A stretch of DNA of 64,000 nucleotides from NCBI GenBank assembly GCA_023246355.1, contig JAHFIQ010000001.1:222234-286233 (forward strand), read 5' to 3'. Source of the stretch: Candidatus Uhrbacteria bacterium (GTDB taxonomy: Bacteria; Patescibacteriota; Patescibacteriia; UBA9934; GWF2-40-263). This document shows, one piece after another, positions 1 through 30,509 of this stretch. Positions within the stretch are counted from its first letter, which is position 1. Each line of letters starts with the position of its first letter. The position numbers were made by a program, and so were the translations under genes. Under the pieces are notes generated by a model. The model worked only from the letters and a program-made list of their open reading frames with translations. It ran no database searches and was not told where the DNA came from.

Positions 1-1616
1 TTTTCAAAAGGATAATGCAGCTGCGCGTATGGCATGGAACCAGATTCAAACCAACAATCAAGCACCTCGGGGATACGTCGAAACACCTTTCCTTCTTTTT
101 CAAAGGTGACGGCATCCACATACTGCTTGTGCACATTTTGAATTTTTTTTCCTGAAAGTTGTTCTAACTCAGAAACGGATCCCACACAGTGCACATCACC
201 CTCATCACTGATCCAAAGCGGCAATGGCGTTCCCCAAAATCTTGAACGAGAAACAGACCAGTCAGGAGAACCAGCGAGTCCTTTTCCAAACCGACCTTCT
301 TTGATGTGCTCAGGAACCCAGTGAATCTCCTCTGCCTTTGTGAGTAGTCGATCAACCACGGACTCAACCGCCACAAACCAGGAAGAGGTCGCATAGTTCA
401 GCAGCGGCGTGTCACAACGCCAACACAGAGGATAGCTATGTTTGATTTTTTCCTTGGAAAACAAACGACCGCTATGCGCCAGAGCCTTGACAATCTCAAT
501 ATCCACACTCATCGTGTCGCCTTTCTTTTTGACTGGGACATCTTTCACTGTGTAGCCAGCTTGTGATAGGGGTTCTGCGACCTCACTCACAAACTGCCCA
601 TTCATCTGAACGTGAAAAATCGGCTCAACCTGTTCTCTCTTGCCTACCTCATAGTCATCAGATCCAAACCCAGGAGCAATATGAACCAACCCTGTTCCCT
701 CATCGATTGTGACAAAATCTCCCTCAACGACCCGAAAAGCATTTGGATGATCCTGAAAAAATGGAAACAACGGTTTGTATGTCAACCCAACAAGATCTGA
801 TCCTTTGAGAGAATCAGTGATCGTGTACTCTTTGCCTTGAAAAACTTTTTGGGCGAGCTCATTGGCAACAAGATAGTTCTCGCCTTCAGATTTCACAATG
901 GCGTACACGATGTCTGGATTCACAGCCACAAGTGTGTTCCCAGGCAATGTCCATGGGGTTGTCGTCCAGGCAAGCATCTTTACATCTGTGAATATCCCAC
1001 TGGTTATTGGAAACGCCACAACGACCGTCATGTCTGTGACTTCTTCATAGCCCTGATTCACCTCGAATTTCGAAAGAACCGTTTCACAACGAGGACAAAG
1101 ATGAATCGGCTTGTGTCCTTGGTAGATCAATCCCTTTTCCCACAACGTCTTAAACACCCACCAGACCGACTCCATGAAAGACAGATCCATGGTTTTGTAG
1201 TCGTCGTCCATGTCGACCCATCTACCAAGTCGCCGAATGACCTTCTTCCACTCAGTGGCATACAACATCACTTCTGCGTGGCAGGCATCATTAAATTTTG
1301 CTACGCCATATTCCTCGATGGCTTTCTTTGAACCAAGATCAAATTTTTTCTCAACGATATTTTCAATCGGCAACCCATGACAATCCCATCCCCACTTGCG
1401 ATCCACATGAAACCCACGCATGGTCCAAAAACGAGGTACCACATCTTTCATCACGCTGGCCACGATGTGTCCGTAATGCGGAAGGCCTGTGGCAAACGGC
1501 GGGCCGTCATAAAACACAAACGGCCCTTTGGGGGAGGGCTTTGCAAGGGTCTTTTGAAAAATCTTGTTGGCTTCCCACCCGTTCAGGACCTCGAGTTCGC
1601 GTTCAGGAAAATTCAT
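1..1616 (-). CDS. ileS: isoleucyl-tRNA synthetase, N-terminal part (runs off the window start)
   Basis: Reverse-strand translation from the ATG at 1616..1614 gives MNFPERELEVLNGWEANKIFQKTLAK..FVFYDGPPFATGLPHYGH, the class I HIGH motif, in an IleS-like context. Not in the ORF track because no stop lies within the window. Confidence 0.8.
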   Translation of the reverse strand, partial: MNFPERELEVLNGWEANKIFQKTLAKPSPKGPFVFYDGPPFATGLPHYGHIVASVMKDVVPRFWTMRGFHVDRKWGWDCHGLPIENIVEKKFDLGSKKAIEEYGVAKFNDACHAEVMLYATEWKKVIRRLGRWVDMDDDYKTMDLSFMESVWWVFKTLWEKGLIYQGHKPIHLCPRCETVLSKFEVNQGYEEVTDMTVVVAFPITSGIFTDVKMLAWTTTPWTLPGNTLVAVNPDIVYAIVKSEGENYLVANELAQKVFQGKEYTITDSLKGSDLVGLTYKPLFPFFQDHPNAFRVVEGDFVTIDEGTGLVHIAPGFGSDDYEVGKREQVEPIFHVQMNGQFVSEVAEPLSQAGYTVKDVPVKKKGDTMSVDIEIVKALAHSGRLFSKEKIKHSYPLCWRCDTPLLNYATSSWFVAVESVVDRLLTKAEEIHWVPEHIKEGRFGKGLAGSPDWSVSRSRFWGTPLPLWISDEGDVHCVGSVSELEQLSGKKIQNVHKQYVDAVTFEKEGKVFRRIPEVLDCWFESGSMPYAQLHYPFE

Positions 1617-2706: not shown

Positions 2707-3651
2707 CTAGAACTGCACCAGGAAGCGGAAGGCGATGTTGACGAGCCGGTTGCCGCTCCAGTAGTCGTTGACATACGCGAGCCCACCGTCGCCGGTGTGG
2801 CCCACGATGAGCGCGCCCTGGGAACCGCAGCGGTTCTCGCACCACTCCACTGCATTGGTAGAACCAAGGTCTGGGAAGGAGTCGGCGGTGTGCTGGGTCA
2901 CCCAGTTGAAGAGGTTCCCCATGAAGTTGAAGGCCTTCACGGACTGGATGCGGGAATTGCCACCCAGGGGCTTGAAGACCCCTGAGACCTTGGGGAGGAT
3001 GTCCGCCACGAGGTCGTCTCCCTCACCCTTTTCCGAGTGCGGGTGGCTGAAGCGGGTCTTGAGGCCGATCGTCACCATGAGCCGGTCGTCGGGGTAGACG
3101 CCGTCCTGGTAGTTGGGCTTCTGGATGACCTCGAAGGCAATCCACCTTCCCAGCAACGGAAGAGGCGTGACATCAGCACCCGACAGGTATCGTTTCCAGT
3201 CAGGCTTCACGAAGCTCTTGGGATAGTCCTTCTCCTTCCAGGCCGGGACGAAGAAGAGCCCGAGCTTGAACTTGGCCATCAACCGACGTTGAGCACGGTT
3301 GAAGTCCGGTGGCTCAGGCAACTCGGTCTTGGGGCTGCCTTCCATCTCGTGCAAGGCGTCGAAGATCGTCTGCATCCAGGTGTGGAGCTGCGCCTTCCAG
3401 TCCTTTCCCGTGAGGCTGGGGTACTTGAGGCTCTTCAGGTGGTCGGAATGGGACTGCCGCCGCGACAGTTCCGCTTCTTCACGCTCGACGATCTCCGTCA
3501 GTTCAAGGAGGAAGCCTTCGCCGCGTGCTCCCAGCACTCCGGCGTGATTGAACAGGTCGAAGTACTTCACGATCGTGGGCATGCCCTCGCCGCCCGTACG
3601 ATTGACCTGACTGACGAGCTCCTTGACCCATGAAGGAATACTGAATTGCAT
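2707..3651 (-). CDS. high-GC hypothetical protein with FGE/C-type-lectin-like C-terminal domain; paralog of the DGR target
   Basis: About 60% GC. C-terminus VEWCENRCGSQGALIVGHTGDGGLAYVNDYWSGNRLVNIAFRFLV aligns with the DGR target C-terminus STWCWLRTRFGRGALDACDLGGVVRVF. Start chosen at MQFSIPSW (3651), which has a GGAGAG SD; the ORF track extends to 3666. Confidence 0.55.
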   Translation of the reverse strand: MQFSIPSWVKELVSQVNRTGGEGMPTIVKYFDLFNHAGVLGARGEGFLLELTEIVEREEAELSRRQSHSDHLKSLKYPSLTGKDWKAQLHTWMQTIFDALHEMEGSPKTELPEPPDFNRAQRRLMAKFKLGLFFVPAWKEKDYPKSFVKPDWKRYLSGADVTPLPLLGRWIAFEVIQKPNYQDGVYPDDRLMVTIGLKTRFSHPHSEKGEGDDLVADILPKVSGVFKPLGGNSRIQSVKAFNFMGNLFNWVTQHTADSFPDLGSTNAVEWCENRCGSQGALIVGHTGDGGLAYVNDYWSGNRLVNIAFRFLVQF

Positions 3652-3984: not shown

Positions 3985-4673
3985 TCGAAATCGTGCCGGC
4001 CTTTTTGGCCGAATCAGAACGTGAGTTTGAGCGCAACCTTCGGCTGGTCGAGAACGACTGCCAGCTCATCCAGGTCGACGTGCTCGACGGCTCGTTGTTT
4101 CCCAACACCTGCTGGTTCGACGCGGAGCGAATCGGCAACCTCAAGACCAACGTCGAAATGGAACTTCACCTCATGGTCGAGAATCCCATTCCCATCATCG
4201 AGGCGTGGAAAAAATATGTGCCAACCTTCAAACGCGCCATTGTTTCCGCGGAGATGCATCGACCAACAGGCGCGGTCACGGGCTTCATCAAAGACGAACT
4301 CAAACTCGAAGTTGGCGTGGCGCTGAGTCCTGAGTCGCCCCTCAAAGAAATCGAAGAAGTGCTCCACCAAGTTGATGCGCTCACCATCATGAGTGTGCAT
4401 CCAGGTCGCCAAGGTCAAACCTTTGGCGATCCTGAGCACGGGGGAAACCTCCCGTTCATCTTGGAAAAAATCGCCCAAGCTCGGGCGCATCGACCTGATC
4501 TCATGATCGAAGTAGACGGAGGCGTGACAGCTGAACTCATCCCGGCTCTGATAAAAGCTGGTGCCAATCGTCTGTGTGTTGGTGGCGCGATCTTCAAATC
4601 AACTGACCCAGCTGGTACACTGAAGGAAATGAACCAATACCTTTATGAACTTTTGCAAAACAGCGCAGGCTAA
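3981..4673 (+). CDS. rpe: ribulose-phosphate 3-epimerase
   Basis: LHLMVENP and MIEVDGGV motifs; 230 aa. The last three codons and the stop are supplied by a REP element. Confidence 0.85.
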   Translation: MIEIVPAFLAESEREFERNLRLVENDCQLIQVDVLDGSLFPNTCWFDAERIGNLKTNVEMELHLMVENPIPIIEAWKKYVPTFKRAIVSAEMHRPTGAVTGFIKDELKLEVGVALSPESPLKEIEEVLHQVDALTIMSVHPGRQGQTFGDPEHGGNLPFILEKIAQARAHRPDLMIEVDGGVTAELIPALIKAGANRLCVGGAIFKSTDPAGTLKEMNQYLYELLQNSAG

Positions 4674-5457
4674 AGCCTGCGGCTACCTCACAATCTTTAC
4701 CCTGCTCGCCATCCTTGCCCTACCTGTTCACGCCGCCACCGTCTCCGCTGACGACCTCACGCCTGGCGATCTGATCCGTGGGGAATCTTTTTCCGCTGTC
4801 TACTACTATGCAGAAGATGGGCTGCGCTACGTTTTCCCAAATAGCAAAGTCTACTTCACGTGGTACGAGGACTTCGACGATGTGAGCTGGCTTTCCGATG
4901 AAGATCTCGCCACCATAGAAATCGGCGGCAACGTCACCTACAAACCAGGCATCAAGATGGTCAAGATCAACTCCAGTCCCCAGGTCTATGCGGTTGGAGC
5001 TGGTGGTATCTTGCGCGGCATTGCATCTGAAAACGTTGCACAAGAACTCTACGGCGAGGATTGGAACCAGAATATTGATGACATCCCTGATGGATTTTTT
5101 GGCAACTATGAAATTGGAGAGGACATCGAACTTTCAACCCAGTACGATCCAGATGTTGAAGAGCAAGACGCTCAAGACATCGATGACGATCGCGACATCA
5201 AACCGTTTGTGGAGATCACGGTCACAGAGGAAGGCTACAGCGAACCAACCGTGACTATCGACTCAGGAACAGCCGTCCGATGGACGAATGAGGGAGAAGA
5301 AAACCACACCGTGACGGAATGGGATAGCGTCTGGGGATCTGGAACGCTGAAGCCCGGTCACCACTTCACCCACTATTTCCGGGAAGAAGGCACCTGGCAC
5401 TACTATTCAAAAACCGACGATCGCAACATCTTTGAAGGTGCTGTGATTGTGGAATAA
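4645..5457 (+). CDS. secreted protein with degenerate cupredoxin-like C-terminal domain (paralog A)
   Basis: Signal peptide. About 60% identical to 5533..6348, but the copper-site residues are replaced (WHYYSKTDD versus FHCKYHSSM). Confidence 0.6.
   Translation: MNFCKTAQAKACGYLTIFTLLAILALPVHAATVSADDLTPGDLIRGESFSAVYYYAEDGLRYVFPNSKVYFTWYEDFDDVSWLSDEDLATIEIGGNVTYKPGIKMVKINSSPQVYAVGAGGILRGIASENVAQELYGEDWNQNIDDIPDGFFGNYEIGEDIELSTQYDPDVEEQDAQDIDDDRDIKPFVEITVTEEGYSEPTVTIDSGTAVRWTNEGEENHTVTEWDSVWGSGTLKPGHHFTHYFREEGTWHYYSKTDDRNIFEGAVIVE
4663..4687 (+). repeat. REP element copy 1 (GCGCAGGCTAAAGCCTGCGGCTACC)
   Basis: Palindromic core GCAGGCT.AAGCCTGC with a GTAG/CTAC end. The same 25-mer recurs at 12876, 13404, 13442 and 48977. 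Confidence 0.8.
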
Positions 5458-5532: not shown

Positions 5533-6348
5533 ATGACAAAACGCCTTTCCTTTTTGTCAGTCTCGCTGCTCGCCATAGCCATGGTTTCAAGCGTTGTTCT
5601 CTCCGGGCTCGTTCCAACCGCTGGCGCCACCAGCCTCACAGATCCAGAAGATCTGGAGCCAGGTGACCTTATCCGTGGAGAAACATTTTCTGCTGTCTAC
5701 TATTACGGTGAAGATGGTTTCCGCTATGTGTTCCCCAACAGCAAAACCTACTTCACTTGGTATGAAGACTTCGACGACGTGGTTTGGTTGTCTGACTCGG
5801 ACATGTCCACGATCCAAATCGGCGGCAACGTCACCTACAAGCCAGGAGTAAAAATGATCAAAATCAACTCTGACCCAACCGTCTACGTGGTAGGCATGGG
5901 CGGAGAAATCCAAGGCATTCCATCGGAGGAAGTAGCTGAAGCGCTCTACGGTTCTACCTGGAACCAACAAATTGACGATGTCCCAGATGGATTCTTTAGC
6001 AACTACACCATGGGCTCGGATCTGGAATTCGCCTCGCAGTTTGATCCAGATGCAGAAGAAGCTGAGGCCGACTCCATCAACGATGACAAAGCTCTTCAAC
6101 CCTACGTCACCATCACCATCACGGACAACGAATACAGCGACGAGAACCTCACGGTCGAAGCGGGAACCGCCGTGCGCTTCGTGAATGAAGGAAGCAGCAA
6201 CCACACGGCAAGTGCAGACGACGGCTCCTGGGGAACCGGAACCCTCGCCAGTGGCAAGAACTTCTCGCGTTACTTTGACGAGGAAGGCGACTATGACTTC
6301 CACTGTAAGTATCATTCAAGCATGACGGGAACGATCACTGTTGAGTAA
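5533..6348 (+). CDS. secreted cupredoxin (plastocyanin/azurin-like) domain protein (paralog B)
   Basis: C-terminal YDFHCKYHSSMTG fits the type 1 copper site pattern H..C..H....M, with an upstream His at NHTA; signal peptide. Confidence 0.65.
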   Translation: MTKRLSFLSVSLLAIAMVSSVVLSGLVPTAGATSLTDPEDLEPGDLIRGETFSAVYYYGEDGFRYVFPNSKTYFTWYEDFDDVVWLSDSDMSTIQIGGNVTYKPGVKMIKINSDPTVYVVGMGGEIQGIPSEEVAEALYGSTWNQQIDDVPDGFFSNYTMGSDLEFASQFDPDAEEAEADSINDDKALQPYVTITITDNEYSDENLTVEAGTAVRFVNEGSSNHTASADDGSWGTGTLASGKNFSRYFDEEGDYDFHCKYHSSMTGTITVE

Positions 6349-6422: not shown

Positions 6423-7322
6423 ATGCCGAATTTGACTATGGGTCCCAAGGTTCGAAAACCTTTGCATCTGCATGACAAAAAACTCAAGCAACTAGAGGAA
6501 CGTGCACAGATGATCCGCGAGGACGTGATCGACATGCTGGTGCAAGCTGGTTCTGGACACTCGGCTGGACCTCTTGGGATGGCGGACATCTTCACCGCCC
6601 TCTATTTTCACGTCCTGGTTCATGACCCCAAACGCCCTGACTGGAAAGACCGCGATCGTCTAATCCTGAGTAACGGCCACATCTGTCCCATCCGCTACGC
6701 CACCATGGCGCATGCTGGCTACTTCCCAAAAAAACTGTTGATGACCCTGCGCAAGCTCGGCTCACCGTTGCAAGGACATCCTGAACGAGAAAAACTTCCG
6801 GGGGTTGAGACTACCTCTGGTCCACTTGGTTCAGGATCATCACAAGCCGCAGGACTTGCCTACACCGCTCTCTTGGATCGATCCCCATGGCGAGTGTACT
6901 GCGTGATGAGCGACGGAGAATTGGCTGCCGGACAAACCTGGGAAGCCATGCTGTTTGCTAGCCGCAACAAACTCTACAACTGCACATTCGTGATCGATCG
7001 CAACAACATCCAAATCGATGGCACGACCGAGGAGATCATGCCGCTTGAACCCTTGGCCGCAAAGTTCGAAGCGTTCAATCTCAACGTCGAGCACTGCGCA
7101 GGAAACTCGATTCGAGATTTTGTCACAGCGATTGAGCGTGCGCACTCTGTCAGTGAAAAACCCACCGTGATCATCGCAGACACGATCCCCGGCTACGGCG
7201 TTGAGTTCATGGAGCATGACTTTCTCTGGCACGGAAAACCGCCATCCCCTGGAGAAGAGGCCCACCTGGCCATCGAACAACTCAGAACACTCTCAGGAAA
7301 AATAATAAGTGAGCATCAATAA
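6423..7322 (+). CDS. tkt: transketolase, N-terminal subunit (split tkt)
   Basis: GSGHSAGPLGMADI thiamine-diphosphate-binding region; 299 aa matches the N-terminal half only. Confidence 0.85.
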   Translation: MPNLTMGPKVRKPLHLHDKKLKQLEERAQMIREDVIDMLVQAGSGHSAGPLGMADIFTALYFHVLVHDPKRPDWKDRDRLILSNGHICPIRYATMAHAGYFPKKLLMTLRKLGSPLQGHPEREKLPGVETTSGPLGSGSSQAAGLAYTALLDRSPWRVYCVMSDGELAAGQTWEAMLFASRNKLYNCTFVIDRNNIQIDGTTEEIMPLEPLAAKFEAFNLNVEHCAGNSIRDFVTAIERAHSVSEKPTVIIADTIPGYGVEFMEHDFLWHGKPPSPGEEAHLAIEQLRTLSGKIISEHQ

Positions 7323-8256
7323 ATCTATGACCATTCAAAAAGCTCTACCCTGGATCACACGCGGCTTTGCCATCGTTGGGATCGTCGCTCTTATCTGGTG
7401 GGTCGCTCAATATTTCACCGGCGTTCAACCTGTCTTTACGACATCTTCTGGAGATTACTACGAACAGACCATGATCGGGTCGTCTGCATCTTTTGCAGGT
7501 GACTACGGTGAAAAAGCGATCATGCCAGGAGAAGAACTTTTGTACGACTCAGCCCTTGCCGCTGAGATCGATCAGAAGATCATCAAGACAGGCGACCTGT
7601 CGTTGATTGTTCTGGACGTGGAAAAAAGTGCCGATGTCGTGAAGGCTCTTGCGTCAGAAAAAAACGGCTATGTTCAGTCATCATCCGTATCTGAACACGA
7701 AGACGGAACACTTTCAGGCTACGTGATCATCCGTGTCCCAGCCGATCAATTTGATACAAGCGTTGAAGCGTTGAAAGCTGAGGCGCTCGTTGTCGAAGAA
7801 GAATTTGTTTCCACGCAAGACGTAACCGAGCAGTACATCGACCTTGCCGCACGTCTGAAAAATGCTCAAGTACAAGAAACGCGCTACGTGGAAATCTTGG
7901 ACGTCGCCAACACGGTGGAAGAAATTTTGCAGATTGAAAATGCGCTTGCAAACGTCCGCGGCACCATCGAATCGCTCACTGGACAAATTCAATATCTCGA
8001 CTCACAAACAAACTTCTCCACGATCACAGTGAATCTCGATGAGGAACCGGTGATCACCGTGGGCGGAAAAGAGTTTCGCCCAGGCACCACTGTGAAACTT
8101 GCTGCCCAGGCCGTCGTGCGTTTGGCTCAATGGCTCGTTGAGGCCATCATCTGGCTCGTCATCGTCGGCATTGGGATTGGTGTGCCACTGCTTATTCTTG
8201 GATGGATTCTTGTGGTAAAAATTGGAAAGAAATTGATCAATCGATTCAGGAAATAA
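7309..8256 (+). CDS. DUF4349-like membrane-anchored protein
   Basis: N-terminal TM, central coiled-coil region, C-terminal TM; resembles DUF4349 architecture. Confidence 0.5.
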   Translation: MSINKSMTIQKALPWITRGFAIVGIVALIWWVAQYFTGVQPVFTTSSGDYYEQTMIGSSASFAGDYGEKAIMPGEELLYDSALAAEIDQKIIKTGDLSLIVLDVEKSADVVKALASEKNGYVQSSSVSEHEDGTLSGYVIIRVPADQFDTSVEALKAEALVVEEEFVSTQDVTEQYIDLAARLKNAQVQETRYVEILDVANTVEEILQIENALANVRGTIESLTGQIQYLDSQTNFSTITVNLDEEPVITVGGKEFRPGTTVKLAAQAVVRLAQWLVEAIIWLVIVGIGIGVPLLILGWILVVKIGKKLINRFRK

Positions 8257-8286: not shown

Positions 8287-9333
8287 TCAACCGTTCTTGA
8301 ACTTCATACGTTTTACCAAATTGAGTAGTCGCCTCTGATTCCTAAATTCCTGACCATGGTCGAAAGCCGACAAACAGGACTGAATTGTCTCACTGAAATT
8401 TTCCTCTAGGATGCCCGTATCCTCGTATTGCGCTACTAAATTCTCAACCCGTCCGAAAAGTCGTTTTCGCGTTGTTCTCCTCATTGTTCGTACCGTTGGT
8501 CTCAACACCCAACCAAGAAAGTCGACACCTTGTTGGTATGTCCGAATGGAAACCTTGTACGGATGAAGGCGCAAAAGTAGACGTCGTGAGAGATACGATT
8601 CAATTTGCAGAAGGGCTGATTCCAAAAACTGACGACTCTCGTGAAGGAGAATAAAATCATCACAAAACCGAATGTACCACCGTATCCTCAGGTGTTCCTT
8701 CACCCAATGGTCGAACGCATTGAGGTAGACGTTGGCAAAAAGTTGGCTGGTGACATTCCCAAGTGGGAGTCCGCACGATACCCCCTTGACAGACAAGTGG
8801 CTTGCTACGACTTGGCCTATAAGCCGCAACAATGGTTCATTGGTGACACGCCGTGCAAGCATCCCCATAAGCACATCGTGCTGTATCGAATCGAAAAATT
8901 TGGAGATGTCGCACTTGAGCGCATAAATGCGACGCGAGTCGTTACAGGATCCTCGTCTCAAAAAATCTTCAAGTCGGTCAATCGCCGCATGCGTCCCTTT
9001 TCCCTTACGCGAAGCAAACGAATCGAAAATGAAGGATGACTCGAAAGCCGGTTCCAAGACGTTCACAAGCGCCTGATGTACAACCCTGTCACGAACGCTT
9101 GCTTTGCTGATGTACCGACGTTTCGGATCATGAATATAAAATTGCTCATACCCACCGTGGAGATAGGATCCATTCTCAAGGTCGTGTACCAGATCAAACA
9201 ATTCATCCTCAAGCCTCATGGAAAATTGAAGCACATCTTGCTTGGCCATCTTTCCACAACTGAATACTTCCCAGGCATCAAACAAATTTTCTAACGAAAT
9301 AACTTCTTGTAGTGATCCGTTCCTATGAGTCAC
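8287..9333 (-). CDS. DGR reverse transcriptase
   Basis: 348 aa; LPLGNVTSQLFANVYLNAFD is the DGR-specific SQ variant of RT motif 4, and FCDD stands in for YxDD. Confidence 0.85.
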   Translation of the reverse strand: MTHRNGSLQEVISLENLFDAWEVFSCGKMAKQDVLQFSMRLEDELFDLVHDLENGSYLHGGYEQFYIHDPKRRYISKASVRDRVVHQALVNVLEPAFESSFIFDSFASRKGKGTHAAIDRLEDFLRRGSCNDSRRIYALKCDISKFFDSIQHDVLMGMLARRVTNEPLLRLIGQVVASHLSVKGVSCGLPLGNVTSQLFANVYLNAFDHWVKEHLRIRWYIRFCDDFILLHESRQFLESALLQIESYLSRRLLLRLHPYKVSIRTYQQGVDFLGWVLRPTVRTMRRTTRKRLFGRVENLVAQYEDTGILEENFSETIQSCLSAFDHGQEFRNQRRLLNLVKRMKFKNG

Positions 9334-9361
9334 CCCCCCCCCGACGGAGTTTGATCGATGG

Positions 9362-9736
9362 TTGACTGGATTCTCCGGTGAAGAATTCGGATTGGTTCAT
9401 AAATTGTATGAATGGTACAAGCTCCTGCACACCGATGTGATTAGGTTCCCCAAAACGGAACGATACACGATTGGTGAAGTGTTGAAGATGCGGACACTTC
9501 AGCTCATCGAAGGAATCTGGGAGGCGAACTCCCTACCACTCCCAGAACGCCTTGCCTTACTCGACCGACTACAACGATCACTCGACCTTATAAAAATCCT
9601 CATTCGCCTCACGTACGATCTAGGAATCTACAAACGTGATGGTTACATCTATCGGGAAAACCGACTCATGGAAATCGGTCGCATGCTCGGAAGTTGGCGA
9701 AAGAAGACACGAGGCCGCTTGGGTCTCGTGTCTTAA
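9362..9736 (+). CDS. avd: Avd-like accessory variability determinant (four-helix-bundle, TIGR02436-like)
   Basis: 124 aa, basic; LYEWYKLL, FPKTERYTIG and a C-terminal EIGRMLGSWRKK resemble Avd proteins. TTG start. It lies on the strand opposite to the RT and TR. Confidence 0.6.
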   Translation: MTGFSGEEFGLVHKLYEWYKLLHTDVIRFPKTERYTIGEVLKMRTLQLIEGIWEANSLPLPERLALLDRLQRSLDLIKILIRLTYDLGIYKRDGYIYRENRLMEIGRMLGSWRKKTRGRLGLVS

Positions 9737-9746
9737 CAGTTAACGG

Positions 9747-9867
9747 CTTCCACGGCACGGCCACCTTCATTGTCGTACGGGATCGAGAGATTGTCAGCGT
9801 CGTTCCTGTTGACCCTCACCTCGCCGTCGTTGTCGTTGGCGTTGAGAGCACCCTGGCCGAAGCGCGT
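9747..9867 (-). repeat. DGR template repeat (TR)
   Basis: 121-bp match to the VR. On the coding (minus) strand every one of the 18 differences is an A in TR (AAC codons N-A-N-D-N-D..N-R-N..). The 3' end carries the IMH*-like GGTGGCCGTGCCGTGGAAG. Confidence 0.85.
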
Positions 9868-10145
9868 TGCGCCGCTTCCTTCCTTACTCACCAGAGGGAA
9901 CCCATGGGTTGCCTCCTGAATTCCGGGATCCGGAAATGTATTCGGACGGACAGACTGTTTGGCGATCCGCCATAAAAGCGGCACGAAGTGGTTCAACTGT
10001 TTACTCACCGTTACCGACTTCTCCGATTATCATGAACCGGATGCTCGTGGGTAACAGCAGGATGTTGGTAACCAACAAGTTCTCGCTTATTGGTCTACAA
10101 ACCTTCACCAGCAGTATTGTAACAAGATCCAAAACAAAATTAATA

Positions 10146-10182
10146 GCCCTGCTCCGCTACCGCTTGGTAGCAAGAGCAGGGC
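10146..10182 (-). promoter_or_regulatory. GC-rich nested hairpin immediately 3' of the VR (DGR target-recognition hairpin and/or terminator)
   Basis: GCCCTGCTC-tt-GCTACC-aagc-GGTAGC-g-GAGCAGGGC, followed by a T-rich run. Confidence 0.6.
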
Positions 10183-10195
10183 AGGGGGTCAAGGT

Positions 10196-10942
10196 TCAAG
10201 CAGCATTCTTGACCACTTCCACGGCACGGCCACCCTCATTGCCGAACGGGATCGAGAGAGAGGCAGCGTCGCACCTGAAGACCCTCACCACGCCGCCGAG
10301 GTCGCAGGCGTCGAGAGCACCCCGGCCGAAGCGCGTGCGCAGCCAGCACCAGGTGCTGACGTCGATGTGCTCGCCGATGAGGTCGCGGTGCGTCCAGTAG
10401 ACGATCGCGTATTCCTCCAGCGAGAGGAGCTTCACCGCCGCGGTGAGGTCATTCCAGCTCGTATTGATCCGGGGGCACCTGGGAGCGATCTCCACAGTGA
10501 ACCAGTAACCAGCCTGGGCGATCTCCCAGCCGATCTTGGCACGGTCGTCGGCGTTCGCGACAGTCCAGTGATTGGACTGACCGTGCGCAATCATCCACCC
10601 TTCATAGGTCATCTCGACCGTCGACGGGCGGTAGAACAGCTCGCGACCTTCGCGGCGCCAGCGCTTGAGGGTCGTGTTGGAGACGCCGGGCCTGGGCACC
10701 GCGATCGTGAACCCGCGGGCGCGGAAGTTCGCCTCGATGGCGACACGGCGCTCCTCGGCCAGGTCGACCTTGGGCCTGTGGTCCTTCTCGCCGGCCTTTG
10801 CGCGAACTTCGGCCTCGCTGGTGCCGTCGATGATCGCCTGCAGGACAGTACGAGCAATCGCGGCCTTGGCCGGATCGGCGAGGGCGTGGCGTTGTGCTTC
10901 GTCAAACTGGCGCCGGAGCGCCAACTCAATCATGGCTTCCAT
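10196..10942 (-). CDS. DGR target protein (high GC; C-terminal C-type-lectin/FGE-like variable domain)
   Basis: VR sits at the C-terminus. Start chosen at MEAMIE, which has an AAGGAAAG SD; the ORF track extends to 11035. Confidence 0.7.
   Translation of the reverse strand: MEAMIELALRRQFDEAQRHALADPAKAAIARTVLQAIIDGTSEAEVRAKAGEKDHRPKVDLAEERRVAIEANFRARGFTIAVPRPGVSNTTLKRWRREGRELFYRPSTVEMTYEGWMIAHGQSNHWTVANADDRAKIGWEIAQAGYWFTVEIAPRCPRINTSWNDLTAAVKLLSLEEYAIVYWTHRDLIGEHIDVSTWCWLRTRFGRGALDACDLGGVVRVFRCDAASLSIPFGNEGGRAVEVVKNAA
10216..10336 (-). repeat. DGR variable repeat (VR) at the 3' end of the target gene
   Basis: Encodes TRFGRGALDACDLGGVVRVFRCDAASLSIPFGNEGGRAVE against the TR-encoded TRFGQGALNANDNDGEVRVNRNDADNLSIPYDNEGGRAVE. 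Confidence 0.85.
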
Positions 10943-11035
10943 GGTCTTTCCTTTGCTTGTGCCCATGTCGCGCCGGAGCGCAGAGGCACGTTTTGCCCCA
11001 AATTCCAGGCCGAACGCCCAGGTTGGAACCAACAA

Positions 11036-11064
11036 ACAATACAGGAAAATTCGGTTTTTGTCAA
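11036..11064 (-). promoter_or_regulatory. sigma70-like promoter of the DGR target gene
   Basis: Minus strand TTGACA(11059..11064)-17nt-TATTGT(11036..11041). Confidence 0.55.
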
Positions 11065-11074
11065 GCGATTTGGT

Positions 11075-11641
11075 ATGATTCTGCTACCTGTGAAAAAAGA
11101 GGAACAAAACAACGCATACATCGACGCGGCGAACCTGCATCATGGTGTTCAGTCCCAAGGTTGGATTCTTGACTATCGTCGTTTCCGCATCTGGTTAAAA
11201 GAAAAGCATGGGGTAAAAAATGCCTATCTATTTCTTGGGTTGATTCCAAAGCACCATGCCCTGTATCAATCATTACAAGAGGCAGGATTCATCCTGATCT
11301 TTAAGGAAGTTATCTTTGACCGTGATGGTAAGCCTAAGGGTAATTGCGATGCGGATCTTGTCTTGCAGGTCACTGTGGACTTCTTTCATAAAACGTTCCA
11401 AAAAGCAGTCATCGTCACGAGCGATGGAGATTACGCTGGACTCGTAAAAATGCTGCACGCTCATCATGCACTGGAAATGATCGTCTCTCCAGCACAAGAA
11501 AAAAAGTGTTCAATTTTATTGAAACGATCGAATGCTCCCATGACTTATCTTGGACAGTCCCGTATGCGTCCACTTCTAGAGCGCCGAAAAGAAAAAGCCC
11601 CCGATGCGGACGGAACCGCACAGGGGTCTTCTTCGTGGTGA
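11075..11641 (+). CDS. NYN/LabA-like (PIN-like) domain protein
   Basis: AYIDAANLHHG....DADLVLQVTVD...AVIVTSDGDYAGLV pattern of DUF88/NYN. The track ORF 10367..11641 is inflated by the antisense frame of the target gene. Confidence 0.55.
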   Translation: MILLPVKKEEQNNAYIDAANLHHGVQSQGWILDYRRFRIWLKEKHGVKNAYLFLGLIPKHHALYQSLQEAGFILIFKEVIFDRDGKPKGNCDADLVLQVTVDFFHKTFQKAVIVTSDGDYAGLVKMLHAHHALEMIVSPAQEKKCSILLKRSNAPMTYLGQSRMRPLLERRKEKAPDADGTAQGSSSW

Positions 11642-11689: not shown

Positions 11690-12816
11690 TGAGATCGAAA
11701 ACCCAATCAGGCATCAACCGCGAGGCGTGGCTTGCCCGCGATCTGTTTGATGAAAAAAAGCTTAGGCAGACTCCCACCCGCAACGGCTTTGGCGAGGGTT
11801 TGGTTGAAGCTGGACGAGTCAACAAAAATATCGTTGTCCTGTGTGCAGACCTCACCGAATCCACACGCGTTCTTCCCTTCAAGGAAGCCTATCCAGATCG
11901 TTTCGTTCAACTCGGGGTGAGTGAACAATCCATGCCTTCGATCGCGGCCGGCATGGCCATGGCTGGGAAAATTCCGTTCATTGCCAGCTATGCGTGCTTT
12001 TCTCCAGGTCGCAACTGGGAACAAATTCGCACCACGGTCGCACTCAACAACATGAACGTCAAAATTGCCGGCGCGCATGCGGGCGTCTCGGTCGGTCCCG
12101 ACGGCGCCACCCATCAGATGATCGAGGACCTTGCCATCATGCGAGTGCTGCCAAATATGAACGTCGTCGTCCCATGCGATACGATCGAAACACGAAAAGC
12201 AACAGAGACGATCGCGAAACTTGTCGGGCCATGCTATTTACGTTTTGCTCGAGAAAAATCGCCGGTGTTCACCACGATAAAGACGCCATTCAAAATTGGG
12301 CGTGCGGAAACATATCGATTCGGTCAGGACGTCACGATCATTGGAGCGGGGCCTCTTTTGTACGAAGCCCTCTTGGCAGCCGAAAGACTCTCCAAAGACT
12401 TTGGGATCGAATGCCGTGTTGTGAACATGCATACGATCAAGCCCTTGGATGTAAAGACGATCGTGAAGGCTGCGAAAGAAACTGGCGCGATTGTCACGGT
12501 TGAAGAAGCTCAGGCTGCTGGTGGACTTGCTGGCGCTGTGGCTGAAACCATTTCTCTGACAACACCTGTGCCCATGGAACGCATTGGTGTGCAAGATCGT
12601 TTTGGTGAATCTGGTACACCGCGCGAAGTCCAAGAAGGACTTGGCCTTACGGCCGAATTCATCGCTCTTGCCGTTGATCGTGTGCTTCGGCGCAAACATG
12701 GACAGCGTGTGCCGGATGTTCCCGCTCATGTCCTAGCCGCCCAAGAAAAACTCGTCAAAATGCAAAAGGCTGTTATGGACGCGGCGCTCAAAAAAGTCCC
12801 GAGGAAGTGGAAATAA
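11690..12816 (+). CDS. tkt: transketolase, C-terminal subunit (split tkt)
   Basis: Pyrimidine-binding and C-terminal domains (GVSEQSMPSIAAGMA, HAGVSVGPDGATHQ). The N-terminal 60 aa of the track ORF are a spurious extension. Confidence 0.85.
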
Positions 12817-12875: not shown

Positions 12876-12900
12876 GGTAGCCGCAGGCTTCAGCCTGCGC
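12876..12900 (-). repeat. REP element copy 2 (inverted orientation)
   Basis: GGTAGCCGCAGGCTTCAGCCTGCGC. Confidence 0.8.
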
Positions 12901-12925
12901 CCTGCTAAGCTGGTGCTGTTGAGAT

Positions 12926-13403: not shown

Positions 13404-13428
13404 GCGCAGGCTAAAGCCTGCGGCTACC
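13404..13428 (+). repeat. REP element copy 3
   Basis: GCGCAGGCTAAAGCCTGCGGCTACC. Confidence 0.8.
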
Positions 13429-13441
13429 GTCAAAAACCTAC

Positions 13442-13466
13442 GCGTAGGCTAAAGCCTGCGGCTACA
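13442..13466 (+). repeat. REP element copy 4
   Basis: GCGTAGGCTAAAGCCTGCGGCTAC. Confidence 0.75.
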
Positions 13467-26171: not shown

Positions 26172-26286
26172 TTGTCCTGGCGCCTACCTACTCTCGCGCA
26201 ATCGCACTACCATTGGCCCAAGAGAGCTTAACGGCCGTGTTCGAGATGGGAACGGGTGTGGCCTCTCAAGGAAGTGGCACCAAGAC
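26172..26286 (-). rRNA. rrf: 5S rRNA
   Basis: Reverse complement contains ..CCCGTTCCCATCTCGAACACGG..GCGAGAGTAGGTAGGCGCCAGG. Confidence 0.8.
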
Positions 26287-26623
26287 AAAGGAGTCTTTCT
26301 TTTTTTGTAGAAGAGATATTTCTCGCTTGAGACGAATCAAACGTAGAAATGGTTGTAGAGCTCGACCTATTAGTACTGCTCCGCTGAACGTCTTACGACG
26401 CTTACACGTACAGCCTATCAACCTCATAGTCTCTGAGGGGTCTCAAATGAAAACTAATCTTGGGAACGGCTTCGCACTTAGATGCTTTCAGCGCTTATCC
26501 GTACCGAACGTAGCTACCCGGCATTGCCCTTGGCAGGACAACCGGTACACGAGAGGTTCGTTCATTCCGGTCCTCTCGTACTAGGAATGAATTCCCTCAA
26601 TTTTCGATGCCCACGGCAGATAG

Positions 26624-26656
<33 letters not shown>

Positions 26657-26665
26657 ACTCACGTA

Positions 26666-26697
<32 letters not shown>

Positions 26698-27283
26698 AAC
26701 CTTCTCCAGCTCCAGGATGCGATGAGTCGACATCGAGGTGCCGAACCTCCCCGTCGCTGTGGACGCTTGGGGGAGACTAGCCTGTTATCCCCGGAGTAGC
26801 TTTTATCCGATGAGCTTCCGCCGTCCTATTTCGTACGGTCGGATCACTAACTTCTGCTTTCGCAACTGCTCGACTGGTCGGTCTCGCAGTAAAGCTGGCT
26901 TCTGGGTTTGCCCTTAGAGCGCGATTTCCATCCGCGCCAAGCCAACCTTTGTAAACGCCTCCGTTACATTTTAGGAGGCACCCGCCCCAGGTAAACTACC
27001 CACCAGATCCTGTCCCTGACTCCGGTTTCACGGAGTCTGGTTAGAATGCACACGACACAAGGGTGGTATCTCACTGGTGCCCGAAGGCTCCCACCTATTC
27101 TCAACATGTGATGCATGAACCCAAGATCAAGTTATAGTAAAGCTTCACGGGGTCTTTTCGTCTAGCCGCGGGTAGTGAGCATCTTCACTCACATTGCAAT
27201 TTCGCCGAGTCCATCGTTGAGAGAGTTCTCAACTTGTTATGCCATTCGTGCAGGACGGAACTTACCCGTCAAGGAATTTCGCT

Positions 27284-28002
27284 CGGGTCTGTTACACTCC
27301 CATTCATGGGAGGAGGTGATCATTTCTGTCACCTTCTGCATGTCACCATGCAGGTCGGACTATATCATCGTCTGTTAAGACGTTTGGCGTGTAGTCTCTG
27401 AGGATTCTAGAAATCGTGATGGAACCTTTCGGTTCATACTTTGAATAATGCGAGCAGCATCTTGAAGACCTTCAATTGTTTGATGTCGTCTGTTTTCCAT
27501 TAACTGTAAAACGGCGACAAACTTTTCGAAGTCTTCTTGTTTTGCTGTTCGTAATGGATGTTGAATGAAGAATGGGATGATCTTCAAACGAAGATCCCTC
27601 GTTGACCTCACACAATATCTCAGCAACGATTCGCGGTGATTGTCTGACCTTCGATTAAGATAGATCGATCCACACTGAAAGTGATCATGGATCAACTTCA
27701 GTGCCTCTCGACTCTTCTCACCTTGGGTTACGACAAACTCTGGGAACAATTGCCAGCCAAAGCTAGTGGTTGAATTACGGATCATGCTGACTGAGAAGCA
27801 ACCCTCTCCGTCGACAAATCCTACAATCCACCCAACGATATCTAGTCTTTCCTGCTGATTGTCTGGTCTATTAATCGCCATACTATGGCCGAATAATACC
27901 ATAGACCAGGTGTTCCAGCATATAGCCAAATTTTCTCTCTACATCTCCGCGGCAAACGAAGTTCAAGAGGAGGACATTCACCTCACTAAGGCAGTGTTAT
28001 TC
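27284..28002 (-). mobile_element. group I intron in 23S rRNA (inserted after ..GTCCTAAGGT, E. coli position about 1917) carrying a homing endonuclease gene
   Basis: The exon sequence is continuous when 27284..28002 is removed (GTCCTAAGGT | AGCGAAATTCCTTG). The intron ends in G and the upstream exon ends in U. Confidence 0.75.
27375..27929 (-). CDS. LAGLIDADG homing endonuclease
   Basis: IVGFVDGEGCF motif; lies wholly within the intron. Confidence 0.8.
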   Translation of the reverse strand: MAICWNTWSMVLFGHSMAINRPDNQQERLDIVGWIVGFVDGEGCFSVSMIRNSTTSFGWQLFPEFVVTQGEKSREALKLIHDHFQCGSIYLNRRSDNHRESLLRYCVRSTRDLRLKIIPFFIQHPLRTAKQEDFEKFVAVLQLMENRRHQTIEGLQDAARIIQSMNRKVPSRFLESSETTRQTS

Positions 28003-28856
28003 ACCTTAGGACGATTATAGTTATCGCCGGCGTTCATCCGCGCTTCAGTCGAAGGCTGCCGCCCTTGCGGGCTTGACCCCCTTCCTTAACGTTCGGACAC
28101 TGGCCAGGCATCAGCCCCTATACATCACCTTACGGTTTAGCAGGGACCTGTGTTTTTGGTAAACAGTCAGTTGAGATCTTTCGCTGCGGGTCGCATCCTC
28201 CCGGATGCAACCAGGCCTTATCCCGAAGTTACGGCCACTGTTTTGCCTAGTTCCTAAACGATGGTTCTCTCGTACGCCTTGGCACATTCACGTGCCCATC
28301 TACCTGTGTCGGTTTCCGGTACGGGTCTCTCTCACATAATCTTAGCAGCTTTTCTTGGCGCCCTGTCCTTTCCCCTTGTCAGTCCGATTGGACCAACTTG
28401 CGATTGTCTCCGTGCTCGAGATTGAACTCAGCTTGGCGGACTTCCCTACCAAGCGCCTAGAAACACCCAACGCTATAGCCATAGAGCGCGGGAAATTTCA
28501 GAACGCGTCCCTGCGTCAGTGTGAAAGAGAGTGCAGGAATAATAACCTGCTGTGCATCGACTACGCCTTTCGGCCTCGCCTTAGCTCCCGACTAACCCTG
28601 GGTCGATTCGCGTTGCCCAGGAAACCTTAGATTTACGGCGGACGGGATTCTCACCCGTCTTTTTGCTACTCATGCCAACATTCTCTCTTCGCATCGCTCC
28701 ACCCGTGGTCACCCACGAGCTTCAGTGCTGATACGAATGCTCCCCTACCGCGCCCTTCACTAACGTGAAGGACACCCTCAACTTCGGCACGTCATTTAGC
28801 CCCGGTACATTTTCGGCGCAAGAAAGCTTGACCAGTGAGCTGTTACGCTATCTTTA

Positions 28857-28894
<38 letters not shown>

Positions 28895-29511
28895 AGCCTT
28901 CTCACCACCTTTTACACTTAATGACGATTTAGGGGCCTTAGTTTGAGATCTGGGCTGTTGCCCTTTCGACCAATGGAGCTTCGCCCCCATGGTCTGACTG
29001 CCGGGAACACATAATGGTATTCGGAGTTTGGTTAGGCTCGCTAGCCGAAGCCGCTAAGCCCATTCAGTGCTCTACCCCCATTATGTTATTTACCGACGCT
29101 AGTCCAAAAACTATCTCGGGGAGAACCAGCTATTACCGAGTTCGATTGGAATTTCTCCGCTATCCACGCGTCATCCCCGACTTTTGCACAGGTCGTGGGT
29201 TCGGGCCTCCACGGGTTGTTACACCCGCTTCACCCTGCGCATGGATAGGTCACCCGGTTTCGGGTCGTGTGCGCGTCACACTCTATCTTTCTACTCGACC
29301 CCGCTTACCAAACTTGGCAGCGATTGAATCGAGTAGAGAGAAAGATCACGCGGGTTAACGCTCGCTTTCACTACGCCTTCGTCCCGGAGGACTTAAGCAA
29401 GCGACGCACAGCACACTCGTTGGCTCATTCTTCAATAGGAATGCCATCACCCCTTGCGAGGCTCTGACTCCTTGTAAGCATACGGTTTCAGATACTATTT
29501 CATTCCCCTCT

Positions 29512-29544
<33 letters not shown>

Positions 29545-30509
29545 GTTCACTATCGATCAGAACATGTATTTAGCCTTACCAGATAGTCCCGGCAGGTTCC
29601 TACAGGATTTCACGAGTCCCGTAGTACTCAAGGATGTCACTTATGATGGTGCGAATGAATTTCACATACAGGACTATCACCTTCTGTGGTTCTCTTTTCC
29701 AAGAGATTTTGTTATTCATCACACAGGTCCCATCACTCGTCTTTGAAAGAAGACGACCGTAACCCTTACAACCCCTACAACCACAACGGCTTCCACCTTT
29801 CGCCACCGTTTACATGTTGACTTGCGTCGCGATGCTCACCGTAACTTCATGATCGTAGGTTTGGGCTATTTCCTGTTCGCTCGCCGCTACTAAGGAAATG
29901 GATTCGCTTGCACGTTTCCACGCATCGAGAACTCGTGCGTAAAAATGTGAAACGAATAATACTTTTTCTTTTCCTCTGGGTACTGAGATGTTTCACTTCC
30001 CCAGGTTCCCTTCCTGCACCTATGTATTCAGTACAGGACCATGCGGCATTCCCCGCATGAGGTTTCCCTATTCGGAAATCTTCGGATCAAAGGTTGCTTG
30101 CCACCTCCCCGAAGCTTATCGCAGGCTGCTACGTCCTTCATCGGCACGTTCTGTCGAGCCATTCACCGTATGCCCTTATTAATGCTCTACAACCATTTCT
30201 AAATTCGATTTAGAGAATGGTGTATCTCTTCTACCCTATTGTTCAATTGTGAAAGGTCGTCTGGCCGATATGAGAGACGGCTCTATTCTTCGGTGCAGAT
30301 TTTGTCATCTGAACCCAAGGACACAAAAAACCGCGCAGGCGGTCTTCACCGTAACCAAAGTGTTTACGATAAGATCGCTCTGTCATCGTGAAACTTGTGT
30401 TACGTTTGTCATAGATGTGGTCTCCGTGAGCTCTCCCTCTCTTCAATCCCTCTGGATTCAGCCTCGGTTCAGGGGACAAAAGAGGAAGAACGTGTTTCAA
30501 ATTACTGGC

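Follow-up and report, generated by a model that had tools for sequence, protein, structure and literature searches.

A diversity-generating retroelement with avd encoded antisense between the template repeat and the reverse transcriptase gene in a Candidatus Uhrbacteria genome

Introduction

In the diversity-generating retroelement (DGR) of Bordetella phage BPP-1, the components are arranged in the order mtd-avd-TR-brt (architecture B1), and sequence information flows, with adenine-specific changes, from the template repeat (TR) to the variable repeat (VR). A different architecture, B3, written TR-(avd)-RT, where RT is the reverse transcriptase gene and the parentheses denote the reverse strand, is reported for 90% of the DGRs of the Candidate Phyla Radiation (CPR) by Wu et al. 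(2018; Nucleic Acids Res 46:11, PMC5758913). Here we describe a DGR in a 64-kb stretch of DNA (hereinafter, the window) from a Candidatus Uhrbacteria bacterium (GenBank assembly GCA_023246355.1, contig JAHFIQ010000001.1, positions 222,234 to 286,233), in which one complete element spans positions 8287..11035. An earlier note on this DNA had set the layout against that of canonical DGRs, in effect the Bordetella phage prototype only.

Results

A DGR of the B3 architecture

Probably, the locus is an ordinary DGR of the CPR/Patescibacteria type with the B3 architecture, in which the template RNA would be made as a transcription unit of its own. We count the layout as B3 because avd lies on the reverse strand between TR and RT and there is no other accessory gene. 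The parts of the cassette are as follows.

8287..9333, minus strand: RT, the DGR reverse transcriptase, 348 aa, with a GTG start and the LGNVTSQ motif
9362..9736, plus strand: avd open reading frame (ORF), 124 aa when counted from the TTG that is its first canonical start in frame, ending in ..EIGRMLGSWRKKTRGRLGLVS
9740..9867, minus strand: TR, with a GC-rich end, GGTGGCCGTGCCGTGGAAG, resembling the IMH* element (IMH, initiation of mutagenic homing), at about 9765..9747
10209..10336, minus strand: VR, 84% identical to TR
10196..11035, minus strand: DGR target gene, the longest ORF, 279 aa from a TTG, with VR at the C-terminus

All the parts of a DGR are present, and each belongs to the right family. 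The positions and strands given for RT, avd, TR and VR in the earlier note agree with ours throughout, and so does its placement of avd between TR and RT, on the strand opposite to that of the target, TR and RT. The distance between TR and RT, both on the same strand, is 406 bp.

For comparison, we used the 80 best genome loci, nearly all from Patescibacteria, and 80 metagenome loci that are independent of the genome set (related loci are labelled L009-L177). In each of the 77 genome loci with upstream sequence, avd is immediately upstream of RT and on the other strand, and an adenine-biased TR follows on the RT strand, just past the avd stop, in 66 of these. The metagenome loci show the same divergent arrangement of avd and RT (62 of 64), for a total of 139 of the 141 loci with enough sequence over both sets. 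In a second Uhrbacteria metagenome-assembled genome (MAG; GCA_016235605.1, locus L087), this cassette is found at the corresponding site, flanked by the two halves of a split transketolase. An antisense avd between TR and RT is the norm for this RT lineage and is already published, so that what the earlier note had presented as a departure from the canonical DGR order is the B3 arrangement. The window shares with the B3 elements of CPR described by Wu et al. the order and strands of the parts, a single target of no known family, the families of Avd and RT, and the CPR host; we detected no difference in layout. The components and the adenine-specific flow from TR to VR are those of the BPP-1 element as well; unlike in BPP-1, avd lies downstream of TR on the other strand and is head to head with RT, which it meets or overlaps.

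Avd, reverse transcriptase and target

The 124-aa ORF is a true Avd by both profile and fold. It matches the Pfam family bAvd (PF22296) with 43.5 bits, above the gathering score of 40, and the NCBIfam model DivGenRetAVD (NF033474) with an E-value of 2.3e-15 and 56.8 bits, which is under the curated equivalog cut-off of 80. From 18 homologues, AlphaFold (AF2) predicts a four-helix bundle with a predicted local distance difference test (pLDDT) score of 91.6. In a Foldseek search, this model aligns with the Avd of the Bordetella phage (4dwl) at template modelling (TM) scores of 0.70-0.84 and a root-mean-square deviation of about 2 A, and with the Avd chains of the bRT-Avd-RNA particle (8ub7) at 0.71-0.80. 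The best structural matches are bundles of S23-IVP, the S23 ribosomal intervening-sequence proteins (PDB 2gsc and 2rld; TM 0.75-0.84), which belong to the same four-helix fold family and are not linked to an RT or a TR; we assign the protein to Avd rather than S23 because of the genomic context and the bAvd and DivGenRetAVD profiles. A search of PDB sequence profiles with the Avd alignment yielded no match, the fold similarity being found by structure search. The protein is basic (isoelectric point 9.8; 14.7 kDa), and its ORF is the sole Avd-like one within the 64 kb, as is the RT ORF for its kind. The Avd identity proposed in the earlier note, and its statement that no second Avd-like ORF is present, are thus borne out by the profile check.

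The RT carries the motif LPLGNVTSQ, in which G192, N193, T195, S196 and Q197 are invariant in a 28-sequence alignment and which conforms to the DGR-type pattern [ILV]GxxxSQ; it also matches RVT_1 (E = 3.8e-24). The closest RTs, at 79% identity, are from genomes named Candidatus Uhrbacteria. Gene callers place the start at Met29, not at the GTG; a start at the GTG, which abuts a run of G, is possible. The N-terminus of the RT contains a conserved His (His-3 in the window).

The TR and VR form a pair of 128 nt in which 18 of the 21 mismatches fall on TR adenines (minus strand), and the remaining three on the 3' end, past the shared GC-rich, IMH-like stretch: GGTGGCCGTGCCGTGGAAG is common to both repeats, after which the sequences diverge. 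Read from the repeats themselves, the 18 adenine-specific differences show that the DGR has been active in the past, and TR, which contains 32 adenines, is intact. VR ends 13 nt short of the stop codon of the target ORF (10196..11035, minus strand), for which gene callers choose an ATG at 10966 as the start, giving 256 aa, and which has no family match in Pfam or NCBIfam. The arrangement expected of a DGR is found here: VR is at the 3' end of a coding target, and a GC-rich IMH and an inverted repeat come after it. The target gene is overlapped by an ORF on the plus strand (10367..11641), which is probably over-extended because its NYN domain maps to about 11117..11515.

A putative structured leader and a hairpin flanking the template repeat

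The following features of the minus strand bear on the template RNA.

10147..10181, minus strand: GC-rich inverted repeat directly after the target stop/IMH region, followed by a U-rich run, UUAAUUUUGUUUUGG
10116..10121, minus strand: -10-like hexamer TACAAT, putative promoter of the TR RNA (columns 26-35 of a six-sequence alignment)
9868..10112, minus strand: conserved, predicted structured leader 5' of TR, about 245 nt, with covariation
10106..10094, minus strand: leader motif GAAGGTTTGTAGA, invariant in the leader alignment
10071..10063, minus strand: invariant leader motif TTACCAACA
9991..9983, minus strand: invariant leader motif CCACTTCGT
9893..9885, minus strand: invariant leader motif TGGTGAGTA
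9984..9974 with 9879..9869, minus strand: predicted leader helix 7, 11 bp, pairing just 5' of TR
9703..9733, minus strand: predicted stem-loop after TR, with a 13-position stem and a tetraloop, 7 nt past TR, made of the last 10 avd codons

The inverted repeat after the target corresponds to the hairpin usually seen after VR and has the look of a terminator; L088, L089, L096 and L097 have a counterpart of it, also with a T-run. Downstream of it, the site of the putative -10 element reads TACAAT, TGTGTTATAAT, GATAAT or TATACT in the relatives. The VR-TR spacer of the window, 341 nt long, has a folding z-score of -4.12, and RNAalifold applied to the six-sequence alignment of the leader predicts 63 pairs, 35 of them with compensatory changes. 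In this structure, 91.4% of the cells are paired, compared to 44-52% after sliding the partners by 1-3 columns, and none of 500 shuffles attains the observed values. The helices and motifs of the leader are kept in L087, at 79% RT identity, and a covariance model of the first domain of the leader matches the window at 10003..10112 (minus strand). Helix 7, which would close the 5' edge of TR, recalls the cPRT Stop duplex that bounds cDNA synthesis in the Bordetella ribonucleoprotein (RNP). A search of 9200..10400 against Rfam gave a single sub-threshold chance match. In 32 loci of the wider family, the VR-TR spacer, whose length varies little (247-395 nt), has a mean z-score of -4.15, compared to -2.1 for an equal length 3' of TR (Wilcoxon p 5e-5). 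In the case of a small clade, the 5'-leader model can be regarded as demonstrated; in the wider family, the z-scores alone suggest it.

On the other side of TR, the stem-loop at 9703..9733 is predicted to have a free energy of -17 kcal/mol and a z-score of -3.28. A hairpin is found at the same place in all relatives from the subclade, with unrelated stem sequences, and at the avd stop codon, overlapping or adjoining it, in 124 of 148 loci. When a T tail is required (at least 5 T within the 9 nt after the hairpin), such hairpins are present on the TR strand in 84 of the 148 loci (57%), on the avd strand in 8 of 148, and in 29 of 778 control windows; because the T tail is mostly on the TR strand across the loci, the hairpin resembles a strand-specific terminator. 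The same site corresponds to that of the Avd-binding stem-loop that Handa et al. (bioRxiv 10.1101/2023.10.23.563531) report immediately downstream of TR for 207 of 278 DGRs, and the stem-loop of the window, directly 3' of TR, resembles the Avd-binding stem-loop of BPP-1, Sp 3-33. We regard it as a candidate terminator and/or Avd-binding stem-loop, Avd being characterized as a pentamer with affinity for RT and for the stem-loop 3' of TR.

We infer that, in this clade, the template RNA consists of the leader, TR and the hairpin, with the scaffold mainly 5' of TR. Under this model, the RNA would be made as its own transcription unit: a promoter with the -10 element TACAAT (10121..10116), located past the hairpin/terminator of the target (10181..10147), would drive the structured leader of about 245 nt, followed by TR and by the stem-loop 9733..9703 formed on the last avd codons, which would end the transcript, bind Avd, or both. 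Expression of avd and RT would proceed in divergent directions from the short junction surrounding the C/G tract described below, and Avd, RT and the leader-TR RNA would together carry out adenine-mutagenic retrohoming into VR, such that antisense avd would not be a needed part of the template RNA. With respect to BPP-1, the window lacks a non-coding spacer (Sp) between TR and RT, and the conserved RNA scaffold appears to lie 5' rather than 3' of TR.

The earlier note had instead proposed a minus-strand co-transcript of TR and RT that carries about 400 nt of antisense avd; on this model, the antisense stretch would serve as the Sp and perhaps regulate avd. We consider this co-transcript unlikely and its description in the note probably wrong, given the hairpin after TR with its T tract confined to the TR strand in 57% of the loci, the covarying scaffold 5' of TR, and the z-score of 0.0 for TR plus antisense avd in the window, that is, no excess over shuffles. 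Moreover, according to Wu et al. 2018 (PMC5758913), TR and RT are sometimes on different strands, in which case separate transcription units are needed, and co-transcription is not required. Several observations nevertheless weigh against a separate template RNA, and some of these also favor the co-transcript, along with the location of TR and RT on one strand 406 bp apart. The tail of the hairpin in the window is poor in U (CUUUCGCC), and a consensus terminator scan made no call between TR and RT, so that read-through into antisense avd and RT is possible; no promoter was identified for either RT or avd. The functional Sp of the Bordetella phage sits between TR and brt, and the Bordetella priming adenosine and RT-binding elements are 3' of TR, not 5'. 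The stretch 3' of TR in the relatives also folds to some extent (the mean z-score of -2.1 above), though this includes the hairpin. The attempt to extend the leader to the whole family with the covariance model failed: it matched seven loci of the Uhrbacteria subclade and none of about 160 others. Finally, with regard to an ordinary, working DGR, VR is identical in the window and six other assemblies, a comparison of consensus sequences from related samples.

A C/G tract at the avd/RT junction

The 5' ends of avd and RT face each other across a short junction with the following features.

9325..9327, plus strand: ATG on the avd strand, antisense of the CAT codon for RT His-3, one C out of frame with avd in the window
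9333..9342, at the head-to-head junction: homopolymer, C10 on the avd strand and G10 on the RT strand; no other G/C run in the window exceeds 7
9392..9394, plus strand: second in-frame TTG (avd residue 11), a Leu codon, TTG in 9 of 9 subclade loci, preceded by purine-rich GGNGAAGAR

The earlier note gave a gap of 28 bp with a C9 run between RT and avd, as we also find: the gap is 9334..9361 and holds 9 C, the run becoming 10 C (9333..9342) with the C opposite the first G of the RT GTG. Six independent short-read assemblies contain the same locus with the same 10 C, so that seven assemblies agree; this agreement, together with the conservation of the tract position across phyla, led us to reject a sequencing or assembly error. 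On the RT strand, a G run of 7-13 nt between the 5' ends of avd and RT is present in 52 of about 80 genome loci and in 30 of 62 metagenome loci, and 52 of the 68 G/C runs of at least 7 nt in 657 kb of related loci are at this junction.

The start of avd is doubtful. The earlier note had avd begin with TTG, and TTG 9362 is indeed the first canonical start in a frame that is open from 9329; nevertheless, it may not be the real start. The 16 codons 9344..9391 that precede TTG 9392, and that take in TTG 9362 along with the six codons before it, show differences at codon positions 3:1:2 in the ratio 277:93:90 among close relatives within the Uhrbacteria subclade. By this pattern, codons 9344..9391 evolve as coding sequence, that is, are translated, and because the codons upstream of TTG 9362 show the same coding-type substitution, this TTG is possibly neither the real nor the ancestral avd start. 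Most members of the subclade have no canonical in-frame start ahead of those 16 codons, and in several relatives gene callers pick the TTG corresponding to 9392 as the avd start. Avd could be started from either TTG with the four-helix domain kept whole. An N-terminal extension of RT (the NPVNHRSNSVGGG frame) as the cause of the conservation upstream of the TTG was rejected, since in L091 this frame is interrupted by a stop, and in several loci its phase differs from that of the RT body.

The likely ancestral start of avd is the ATG at 9325..9327. The conserved RT His is encoded by CAT in 48 of 48 and 31 of 31 loci, compared to 62% of the His codons in RT bodies. With 9 C instead of 10, this ATG would open an Avd of 136 aa, MSHPPPTEFDRWLTG..., the length of the longer homologues. 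Among tract-free loci, 20 of 30 have the antisense ATG in frame and open, vs 8 of 48 tract-bearing ones (Fisher p 1e-5), the share among the latter being below one third (p 0.008). In these 20 of the 30 tract-free loci, it is the only in-frame ATG, so that avd and RT overlap head to head. The shifts of frame that would be needed in the tract-bearing loci, +1 and +2, are about equally common, an observation that led us to discard a programmed ribosomal frameshift of fixed direction.

Homopolymeric tracts are known switches of phase variation, as in the poly-G/C tracts of the Neisseria porA/opc and Bordetella fim promoters and the poly-G tracts within the 5' coding parts of genes in Campylobacter and Neisseria; in Haemophilus influenzae, a similar part in phase variation is played by TA repeats located between the divergent promoters of hifA and hifB. 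Like these, the window has a G/C tract of the 7-13-nt class at the 5' ends or promoter region of divergent genes, and tract length differs among the relatives, altering the frame relative to the conserved ATG; by length (at least about 7 nt) and location (5' coding or promoter region, between ATG 9325 and the body of avd), C10 qualifies as such a G/C homopolymer. Unlike in these systems, the seven assemblies agree on the length, and no -35/-10 pair could be defined around the tract from the flanking sequences of the related loci. We know of no use of homopolymer phase-variation switches in the host group, and a search of the available literature for DGRs combined with homopolymers or phase variation found nothing relevant.

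What the tract does can be explained in more than one way. Tentatively, it could be a slippage switch (via slipped-strand DNA synthesis, RNA polymerase, or the ribosome on CCC-C), its length deciding whether full-length Avd and, in some loci, RT are made. Just as speculative is the broader proposition that the tract gates DGR activity in roughly half of the related B3 loci, with avd starting at the antisense RT His codon and hypermutation being phase-variable and mostly OFF. These ideas draw on the placement of the tract at the exact junction, the invariant CAT, the frame statistics of the antisense ATG, the balance of +1 and +2 shifts, and the coding-like codons between the tract and TTG 9392; in addition, the RT of L050 shifts its reading frame at an internal G10 (about 905..925). 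If slippage operates, the window with its 10 C would possibly be in the out-of-frame register, with Avd made from an internal TTG, by slippage, or not at all. A further pair of loci appeared to capture such a change: in L089 (7 C) the ATG is in frame, in L092 (8 C) it is not. However, of the 33 mismatches between these two over 6.3 kb, 31 are inside avd (3066..3349, RT orientation), mostly at third codon positions, which looks like replacement of the avd allele by a recombination patch; this patch adjoins the tract difference and may have brought it along, so that the pair is weakened as proof of slippage. Also counting against a switch are the constant 10 C in all seven assemblies of the strain and the phylogenetic relatedness of the loci, which makes the counts non-independent. 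At the first residue of the Avd domain, a TTG is present in 21 of 58 tract-bearing loci vs 2 of 47 tract-free ones, and many RTs have an ATG 13-28 nt past the tract; because many tract-bearing loci have such starts, the tract may simply be intergenic in much of the family. A role in a promoter or leader, rather than in coding, is indicated by L047, which carries a second DGR with the same-strand order avd-TR-RT and a G10 14 nt upstream of the avd ATG, and another G10 that abuts a perfect TATAAT 7 nt before an ATG (G10 runs at 5253..5262 and 3404..3413).

Two regulatory roles of the tract were considered and set aside. A Shine-Dalgarno function for RT is unlikely, given that the RT ATG is often 13-28 nt past the tract, sometimes with an AGGAG of its own, and that the GTG of the window is without spacing. 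The tract as the spacer of a sigma-70-type promoter is weakly supported: the flanks contain little information, and TANNNT follows the tract in 16 of 89 cases vs a background of 6%.

It is also conceivable, but in our view quite improbable, that the cassette is decaying, with the avd start lost, RT deprived of a normal start context and the target no longer diversified. In favor of decay, the conserved ATG is not in the avd frame, G9 runs straight into the RT GTG and leaves no spacer for a ribosome-binding site, VR is the same in seven assemblies, and neither gene has a canonical start near the junction in L087, the closest relative. Yet the avd and RT ORFs are intact over their full domains, as is TR, the adenine-specific differences attest to past activity, and the leader has kept its helices and motifs relative to L087; the seven assemblies, to judge by accession numbers of two series, come from related samples and may represent one clone. 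As a novelty of the locus, the 5' scaffold in this clade is more likely than gating by the tract and is the better-supported side result. In the portions consulted of Wu et al. 2018 (PMC5758913) and in the other papers searched, we found no mention of the junction homopolymer, an avd ATG antisense to the RT His codon, a covarying 5' leader, or the terminator-like hairpin.

Genomic neighborhood and other features of the window

The DGR cassette is located between the genes for the N- and C-terminal parts of transketolase (6423..7322 and about 11700..12816) and is accompanied there by a DUF4349 gene (7309..8256) and the NYN-domain gene; L087 shows the same placement, without the NYN gene. Tandem paralogues of 270 and 271 aa (4645..5457 and 5533..6348) share a 248-nt stretch with 74% identity and have signal-peptide-like N-termini, and one of them has cupredoxin-type domain matches. 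A short palindromic repeat, GCGCAGGCTAAAGCCTGCGGCTACC, resembling a repetitive extragenic palindromic (REP) hairpin, occurs four times near gene starts or ends (4663..4687, 12881..12905, 13404..13428 and 13442..13466). The 23S rRNA match at 26349..30194 (minus strand) is 3846 nt long compared to the 2925 positions of the model, which implies one or more insertions totalling about 900 nt; the gene for 5S rRNA (26175..26284) adjoins it.

Discussion

Taken alone, the antisense avd makes this locus one more B3 cassette of the published type, and one that shows how poorly the Bordetella prototype serves as a reference for CPR genomes. If the tract does gate Avd, a stochastic switch would govern a costly mutator in organisms whose genomes are tiny. 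If the template RNA is composed of leader, TR and hairpin, the rules of the Bordetella RNP, with priming and RT binding 3' of TR, would not be directly transferable to it. Given that B3 is the layout of most CPR DGRs, a 5' scaffold, if true, would affect the annotation and engineering of such elements.

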